Part shown: piece after piece, positions 1,680 through 1,952 of the stretch
Layout: each line of letters starts with the position of its first letter
Numbering within the stretch: the stretch's first letter is position 1
Origin: a virus
Lineage: Duplodnaviria; Heunggongvirae; Uroviricota; Caudoviricetes
Length of the DNA stretch: 5,095 bases
IMG/VR virus record: IMGVR_UViG_2698536369_000016
Reading direction: 5' to 3' (one strand)
Made by a program: the position numbers and the translations under genes
The notes under the pieces: generated by a model
What the model was told of the DNA's origin: nothing
Database searches by the model: none
The model's input: the letters and a program-made list of their open reading frames with translations, nothing else

Positions 1680-1904
1680 ATGTCATCAAAGAACAGAACC
1701 CGCAGAACAACAACCCGCAACATCCGATTTCCAAACCAGATAATTGAACAAATTAACATCGCTCTTGACCTGAAAGGTTCAGGTAATTTTTCAGCGTGGG
1801 TTATTGAAGCCTGCAGAAGAAGATTAATTAATGAAAAATATTCTCAATTTGTACCCAACAAAGACAAACACGACCAGAGCACCTGTTCAGACAGGTTTAC
1901 TTAA
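1680..1904 (+). CDS. small YlcI/YnfO-like (DUF3950-type) prophage protein
   Basis: 74 aa, MSSKNRTRRTTTRNIRFPNQIIEQINIALDLKGSGNFSAWVIEACRRRL..., near-identical over the first ~50 residues to the small ORF I recall at the right end of lambda and in E. coli cryptic prophages. The C-terminal 25 residues differ. ATG at 1680; weak GGGG Shine-Dalgarno. Confidence 0.65.
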   Translation: MSSKNRTRRTTTRNIRFPNQIIEQINIALDLKGSGNFSAWVIEACRRRLINEKYSQFVPNKDKHDQSTCSDRFT

Positions 1905-1920
1905 ACGACTTATATATGAC

Positions 1921-1952
1921 ACAAAAAGCGACCACTAAAGTCGCTTTTTCTT
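1921..1952. terminator. bidirectional rho-independent terminator between convergent genes
   Basis: Perfect 9-bp stem AAAAGCGAC (1924-1932) / GTCGCTTTT (1940-1948) with a 7-nt loop. A-run upstream and T-run downstream, so it reads as hairpin plus U-tract on both strands. It sits between the stop of the plus-strand ORF (1904) and the stop of the minus-strand ORF (1986). Confidence 0.7.

Follow-up and report, generated by a model that had tools for sequence, protein, structure and literature searches.

The small gene at positions 1680-1904 of the window, as we call the whole 5,095-nucleotide stretch of DNA analysed here, is a genuine member of the YlcI/YnfO (DUF3950) family residing in a defective lambdoid prophage. 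Taken as a whole, the explanation that we hold with good confidence is that the gene consists of a constrained core and an appended tail, and that this tail forms the left edge of an exchangeable cassette carrying a pch-type regulator gene. The original prediction had seen in the gene a recombination joint at which new cargo was grafted. The central idea, a C-terminus swapped by recombination together with cargo, i.e., a terminator and pch, stood up to the analysis; the proposed location of the joint and its novelty did not.

Between IS-like ends, the window comprises a 4.87-kb segment from the late region of an Escherichia coli lambdoid prophage (Table 1). Among the complete genomes with 100% identity to parts of it is that of the O111:H2 strain 12A. 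At positions 1-116 and 4981-5095, a single type of IS1203/IS629-like (IS3-family) terminus occurs twice, the two copies being inverted relative to each other. These ends cut the gene for the large terminase, of which the N-terminal ATPase part is left, and remove about the first five codons of the holin gene. The segment is thus bracketed by inverted IS copies, and together with the damage to terminase and holin this identifies it as defective. Scanning the window for Rfam families and tRNAs gave no match.

Table 1 Features of the window, with positions counted from its first letter.
Feature	Position	Strand	Remarks
GpA_ATPase large terminase, truncated	113-853	-	
Nu1	768-1277	-	
cos-proximal non-coding region	about 1300-1680		
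cos-proximal lambda-like non-coding stretch 5' of the small gene	1428-1679		continuous 88-89% alignment with lambda and Qin-type loci into the gene
YlcI/YnfO family (DUF3950) gene, 74 codons plus stop	1680-1904	+	WP_001300236.1
Conserved core, codons 1-49 (...EACRRRL)	1680-1826	+	
Mosaic breakpoint zone	1816-1826		near-identical relatives with other tails turn unrelated
Class-specific tail, codons 50-74, INEKYSQFVPNKDKHDQSTCSDRFT	1827-1901	+	part of the pch cassette
6-bp palindrome ACCTGT-tcag-ACAGGT	1881-1896		
Bidirectional hairpin resembling an intrinsic (Rho-independent) terminator, AAAAAGCGAC-N7-GTCGCTTTTT	1923-1949		between convergent genes
PerC-family regulator gene (pch-type), 104 aa	1986-2300	-	WP_001303878.1; cargo
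A+T-rich region upstream of pch	2301-2541	-	least conserved part of the cassette
46-aa ORF in the cassette	2542-2682	-	phrog_2157, whole-length family match
Rz with embedded Rz1	2765-3289	-	right-hand conserved arm; similarity of loci without pch resumes at ~2775
Lysozyme	3568-4101	-	
Small ORF in the lysozyme-holin interval, oriented opposite to both genes	4219-4533	+	phrog_1853, whole-length match
Holin without its start	4789-4974	-	

The product of the small gene scores 63.8 bits against the Pfam model PF13132 (DUF3950) over residues 21-49 (cut-off 25) and 34.5 bits against the NCBIfam model NF041551, 'YlcI_YnfO_N' (cut-off 30), which describes the N-terminus only. It also matches phrog_949 over residues 1-55 with an E value of 6e-31. 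The gene is an ordinary, already catalogued allele, and its RefSeq entry names the product a YlcI/YnfO family protein. In phage lambda, the homolog comprises 64 amino acids and is encoded on the complementary strand at 48304-48110 (translation MSTKNRTRRTTTRNIRFPNQMIEQINIALEQKGSGNFSAWVIEACRRRLTSEKRAYTSIKSDEE). It is identical to the window protein at 45 of the 49 core positions, in agreement with the original assignment of the first ~50 residues to a YlcI/YnfO-like protein. Equally correct was the statement that the last ~25 residues differ from those in lambda, as only E52 and K53 are shared. The ORF starts ~400 bp from the start of Nu1, lies on the opposite strand and reads away from cos and Nu1, antisense to the late operon. 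The same arrangement, next to the packaging genes and divergent from them, is found in lambda, Qin-type and HNH-type loci. A promoter scan of the plus strand revealed no consensus-like sigma-70 promoter upstream of the gene. Note that the lambda reference record NC_001416 contains no CDS for the homolog, its annotated features ending at lambdap79 (47738-47944); in other lambda-like records the homolog is listed as hypothetical or left unannotated. In the literature retrieved for YlcI, YnfO and DUF3950, the genes appear in gene lists and no functional study was found; nor did a search for expression of the small gene, including lambda ribosome profiling, return any data.

The core of the gene, codons 1-49, shares 81-89% nucleotide identity with the eight other tail classes introduced below. 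Variable columns are distributed 10/6/34 over the three codon positions, such that third positions account for 34 out of 50, and comparisons between classes yield dN/dS values of 0.03-0.10 at a dS of 0.7-1.6. On account of the third-position bias and the low dN/dS, the core is a real protein domain constrained by strong purifying selection. The family is small, with 187 representatives among 1.84 billion. As the ~144-bp block is always found beside packaging genes, in antisense orientation relative to the late operon, it might alternatively owe its conservation to a role as a DNA or RNA element, for instance a packaging or late-transcript signal. We consider this very improbable, because substitutions in the block favour the third codon positions of the plus frame, with the dN/dS values given above, and because conservation begins at the start codon: in blastn comparisons with HNH-type loci, the conserved island commences exactly at the ATG (1679/1680), the adjoining stretch 1428-1679 being missing from prophages whose packaging genes are of the HNH/Terminase_2 (HK97-type) kind. 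Moreover, divergent homologs keep a protein motif, K-x-I-R-F-P-x-x-L-I-E-x-I ... N-F-S-A-W/F-V-I-E-A, and not the DNA, and the block has no match in Rfam.

Beyond the core, the picture changes completely. The 638 homologs obtained from a search of 5.8 billion proteins fall into at least nine discrete tail classes, all of them setting in after ...EACRRRL; frameshifted long-read copies of lambda had been set aside before the classes were counted. Many 'homologs' from ENA assemblies are in fact a frameshifted lambda ORF and inflate apparent tail diversity. The probable source of such copies is lambda control DNA that entered noisy long-read assemblies. A tail that varies after codon ~49 is thus a property of the entire family and not something special to the window.

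In principle, differing C-termini of this kind can arise in two fundamentally different ways: Either the tail is replaced by recombination, or an unconstrained tail undergoes ordinary divergence without any recombination joint. Comparisons with distant loci cannot tell the two apart. In megablast searches of phage records, lambda-like phages align only over window positions 1428-1814. Sensitive blastn against loci of the nine tail classes yields a single conserved island that ends at 1813-1827 in all comparisons, and in codon-register alignments identity drops to random ~10-30 nt past codon 49. At the depth of these comparisons (dS about 1), neutral decay alone might suffice to explain why similarity is lost after codon 49. 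As the synonymous sites of the core have almost reached saturation, the drop by itself is no proof of recombination; at such distances, unconstrained flanks would look unrelated to those of lambda, Qin-type and HNH-type loci anyway. Proof of recombination comes from near-identical relatives only. The loci designated L025, L027/L028 and L029 encode core proteins that share the unusual D30-L31 of the window and have different tails (STERSGMNYIIK in L025, STDATHLRPASMTNNEK in L027/L028 and TKKAVNREFGYELHN in L029). From ~1540 onwards (from 1507 in L027/L028), their DNA is at least 97% identical to that of the window over ~280 nt. This near-identity ends at 1822 in L025 as well as in L027/L028 and at 1815 in L029. 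Within one or two codons, the sequences switch to unrelated DNA, and the downstream genes also differ from those in the window. The abrupt transition from at least 97% identity to none implies that the C-terminus was replaced by recombination. Ordinary divergence, which would also have to account for tails that form discrete classes each tied to other downstream genes, has hardly any probability left. The mosaic joint at 1816-1826 is a cassette border that recurs throughout the family and not a local novelty.

The original prediction had raised the question of whether the breakpoint coincides with the palindrome ACCTGT-tcag-ACAGGT. This palindrome is present exactly at the position given in Table 1, inside the 3' end of the small gene. 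Divergence sets in at 1816 or 1823, however, 58-65 nt upstream of it, and cassette variants with junctions at the palindrome were not seen. Being a perfect inverted repeat of 6 bp close to the gene's 3' end, it could in principle serve as a recombination site or as a functional hairpin (an attenuator, a processing site or a recombinase site). Apart from the distance to the breakpoints, the numbers render this extremely unlikely, as perfect 6-bp stems with loops of 3-8 nt occur at chance frequency in the window (13 versus 8.3 +/- 3.6 in shuffled sequences) and the fold z-score of the palindrome amounts to only -1.8. The palindrome is a chance-level feature without a visible role in the joint. 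Its conservation is explained by the fact that the whole cassette is 99-100% identical wherever it occurs.

From ~1816/1823, the cassette extends over ~950 bp to ~2775 and comprises the tail, the bidirectional terminator, pch, the A+T-rich region and the 46-aa ORF. Such cassettes are swapped among lambdoid prophages by homologous recombination, with the core acting as the left arm and Rz together with the lysis genes acting as the right arm. In loci that lack pch, similarity to the window sets in again at the end of Rz (2775-2896), and in pch-bearing loci near-identity extends from inside the core to ~3200-3250, into Rz. These sequence comparisons show the core and Rz to be homology arms of cassette exchange. 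Since the core is the left homology arm, heterology invariably sets in at the point at which the core ceases to be under selection. The combination of tail and pch occurs in two backbones, one with a lambda-type (Nu1/GpA) left flank (L002, L021) and one with an HNH/Terminase_2 left flank (L019). L019 exhibits HNH-type single nucleotide polymorphisms in the core up to about +18 only, L021 is of the lambda type to about +62 and of the window type from about +98 at the latest, and L025 switches to the sequence type of L006 between +92 and +101. The latest exchanges thus crossed over by homologous recombination inside the conserved core and not at the tail.

What is found between core and Rz differs from locus to locus. 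Where the window carries pch, lambda carries lambdap79, a DUF1398 gene and bor; Qin-type loci contain a DUF1398 gene, gnsB and others. KilA-N genes occupy this place in L013 and a gene for a TonB_C-domain protein in L027, and L016 has almost nothing there (187 bp). Homology of the 46-aa ORF in the window to ORFs of 45-46 aa in other cassettes, which would have made the pch insertion narrower, was tested for, and none was detected.

The PerC-family gene scores 149.3 bits against Pfam PerC, and RefSeq lists its product as a PerC family transcriptional regulator. Pch proteins have a role in activation of LEE in EHEC (PMC4332760, PMC6265319), and three group 1 pch genes have been described (PMC6265319, PMC4332760). 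The gene in the window shares the features of group 1 Pch (PchA/B/C), as it belongs to the PerC family, is prophage-borne and is present in multiple copies in O157:H7; this putative assignment was made from these features. The core is encoded at about 9,562 places in 4,184 of the 5,426 complete E. coli genomes. The unit consisting of tail, terminator and pch occurs at about 1,881 places, and 673 of these genomes carry it at 99-100% identity. The notion of a new graft in this window can thus be dismissed. The matches listed for the unit all stem from LEE-type lineages, e.g., O157:H7, O55:H7, O111, O145, O103 and O45. The O157:H7 genomes among them mostly contain 3 copies with at least 99.7% identity. 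About three copies per genome agrees with the three group 1 pch genes of the literature. Upstream of pch (2300-2450), the cassette, elsewhere 99-100% identical, is more variable: L019 is 76% identical to the window over 2350-2450. The variability of this A+T-rich region points to differences in regulation among the copies of pch.

The small gene and the convergent PerC-like gene had been predicted to share a terminator with a perfect 9-bp stem. A hairpin is indeed located between the stop codons of the two genes (1902-1904 and 1986-1988), and its stem measures 10 bp instead of 9. It is the sole perfect 10-bp stem in the window, where 0.03 are expected by chance. On the plus strand, it folds with -12.3 kcal/mol (z -3.5). 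On the minus strand, the stem has 11 pairs and the whole fold reaches -17.3 kcal/mol, which at a z of -1.98 is less exceptional. Because a G+C core of 5 bp is flanked by an A-tract on one side and a T-tract on the other, the hairpin reads as a terminator in both directions. From this structure, it would be expected to end the transcripts of both the small gene and pch. A simple terminator scan did not list the hairpin; its T-tract is taken up by A/T pairs of the stem, which probably explains the omission. The plasmid copy L020 contains terminator and pch from window position 1909 on and lacks the small gene. The hairpin is thus retained with pch even when the small gene is absent, which argues that the terminator belongs with pch. 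A second hairpin, situated in the core (1768-1784), was dismissed, as the other tail classes do not conserve it.

Which significance do the tails have for the protein? In the nine classes they measure 25, 15, 28, 12, 13, 17, 12, 14 and 25 codons, 17.9 on average. This fits random sequence, in which ~14-21 codons precede the first stop. AF2 predicts no secondary structure past residue 55, at a pLDDT of about 53-57. Among loci of the pch class, the DNA of the tail differs at 3 sites, all nonsynonymous, and about 7 protein variants exist; these few changes are the complete sample for judging neutrality. Judging from tail lengths, predicted disorder and within-class substitutions, the small protein would simply read on into whichever cassette is resident until the first stop is encountered, and we think that the tail is largely unconstrained read-through. 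An alternative that we rate as unlikely is a functional tail, i.e., a disordered C-terminus that binds a cassette-specific partner or tunes specificity, as in ribbon-helix-helix antitoxins, and travels together with that partner, here pch. Such a function would suit the predicted architecture of a ribbon-helix-helix-like core followed by a disordered tail, it would fit the strict linkage of tail and pch in the 673 genomes equally well, and in Qin-type loci a DUF1398 gene does follow next on the same strand. However, linkage is also explained by physical adjacency, as only about 80 bp separate tail and pch. The random appearance of the tail lengths also speaks against a function, as do the exclusively nonsynonymous changes within the class, the convergent orientation of the small gene and pch with a terminator between them, and the persistence of pch in L020 in the absence of the small gene. 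Read-through into the cassette therefore remains our preferred explanation of the tail.

With regard to the fold of the core, AF2 modelling of the monomer predicts an extended segment (residues 1-18) and two helices (19-32 and 37-55) at a mean pLDDT of 59-70. Most Foldseek matches in the PDB are ribbon-helix-helix proteins (Arc, NikR, ParD, NikA), all with E values of 1.9 or higher. The best PDB sequence match is the CopG structure 9kkd (E = 0.19), and a single divergent member hits the Pfam family RHH_6, at an E of about 0.08-0.09. Three profiles were searched against the PDB sequences and produced nothing significant, a profile of the core alone found no ribbon-helix-helix protein in the PDB, and the aligned homologs, when compared singly with the Pfam ribbon-helix-helix families, gave no significant match. 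With chances slightly better than even, the core most likely adopts the fold of a dimeric ribbon-helix-helix protein that binds DNA. The core resembles proteins of the Arc/MetJ/CopG type in its size, in the predicted order of an extended N-terminus followed by helix-loop-helix, and in a G/S-x-N-F-S motif that is conserved where helix 2 begins. Unlike ribbon-helix-helix antitoxins, the small gene has no adjoining toxin-like partner in the window, and significant sequence or structure matches are lacking.

The position of the gene invites a further speculation, which we consider improbable: the core might be a ribbon-helix-helix DNA-binding module whose action involves either the packaging site or the small terminase, for instance as a prophage-encoded modulator of DNA packaging or an interference factor, with the tails as adaptors for specificity or partners. 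Three observations leave room for a function in packaging. The gene lies next to packaging systems of two unrelated types (lambda Nu1/GpA and HNH/Terminase_2), its constraint ranks among the strongest for small ORFs in this region, and PICI-like satellites fuse DUF3950 in frame to the N-terminal, DNA-binding part of a Terminase_2 small subunit. In these satellites (L022, 3590-4363; also L023 and L024), an integrase gene, an AlpA-sized gene and a D5-type primase gene are accompanied by a DUF3950 gene of 60 aa. The fusion protein P0238, also from PICI-like satellites, comprises 120 aa, in which DUF3950 is joined in frame to a part matching positions 1-53 in the model for the small subunit of Terminase_2. 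It was found in 43 contig-index blocks, one complete genome included, and P0196 is a second fusion of this type. The domain combination may hint at a link between DUF3950 and DNA binding by the small terminase. In L022 (4641-7776), the satellite is adjoined by a 61-aa fragment of Terminase_2, by an HNH gene and by a further DUF3950 gene, which belongs to a prophage. It looks as if the satellite has integrated inside the small-terminase gene of a prophage. This arrangement resembles that of 'helper-embedded satellites' (bioRxiv 10.1101/2022.07.18.500453). Equating the DUF3950 family with Rpp, the PICI protein that redirects packaging, was rejected because Rpp is a winged-helix protein (PMC6739421). 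Packaging interference by Listeria TerI was considered as an analogue and serves as a loose precedent only, given its different location and the lack of a link to DUF3950.

The discovery value of the gene as such is small, as its product is a RefSeq protein in hundreds of genomes and curators already model the N-terminus alone. The window is a clean example of the virulence regulator gene pch moving between prophages with unrelated packaging modules by way of a conserved coding arm of ~144 bp. It also illustrates how, with a cassette border inside a gene, every exchange furnishes the adjacent protein with another tail. As a by-product, a very strongly conserved small protein has come to light that occurs in lambda itself and is unannotated in the reference record. 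Its function, none being known so far in the literature searched (YlcI, YnfO, DUF3950), is the more interesting question.

Mosaic exchange of cassettes among lambdoid phages is textbook knowledge, and the window can be compared with known systems at two levels. At the level of the gene, YlcI of DLP12, YnfO of Qin and the lambda homolog agree in family, in their place by cos and Nu1 and in their orientation antisense to the late operon. They differ in what follows the core: the lambda homolog ends in the tail TSEKRAYTSIKSDEE and is followed by lambdap79, the DUF1398 gene and bor, and the Qin homolog has a tail of 28 aa with a DUF1398 gene next to it on the same strand, whereas the tail in the window comprises 25 aa and is linked to pch. 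At the level of the locus, the region from Rz to cos is a known moron or cassette site of lambdoid phages (occupied by bor in lambda and by pchA/B/C in O157:H7), where cargo lies between lysis and packaging genes just as it does here. The window cassette is moron-like in that the cargo is self-contained and equipped with its own A+T-rich upstream region and terminator, and in that sharp mosaic borders meet conserved flanks. Unlike at a moron site, the left border of the window cassette falls within a coding sequence, where it coincides with a domain boundary, and the small protein consequently gains a new C-terminus with each cassette.
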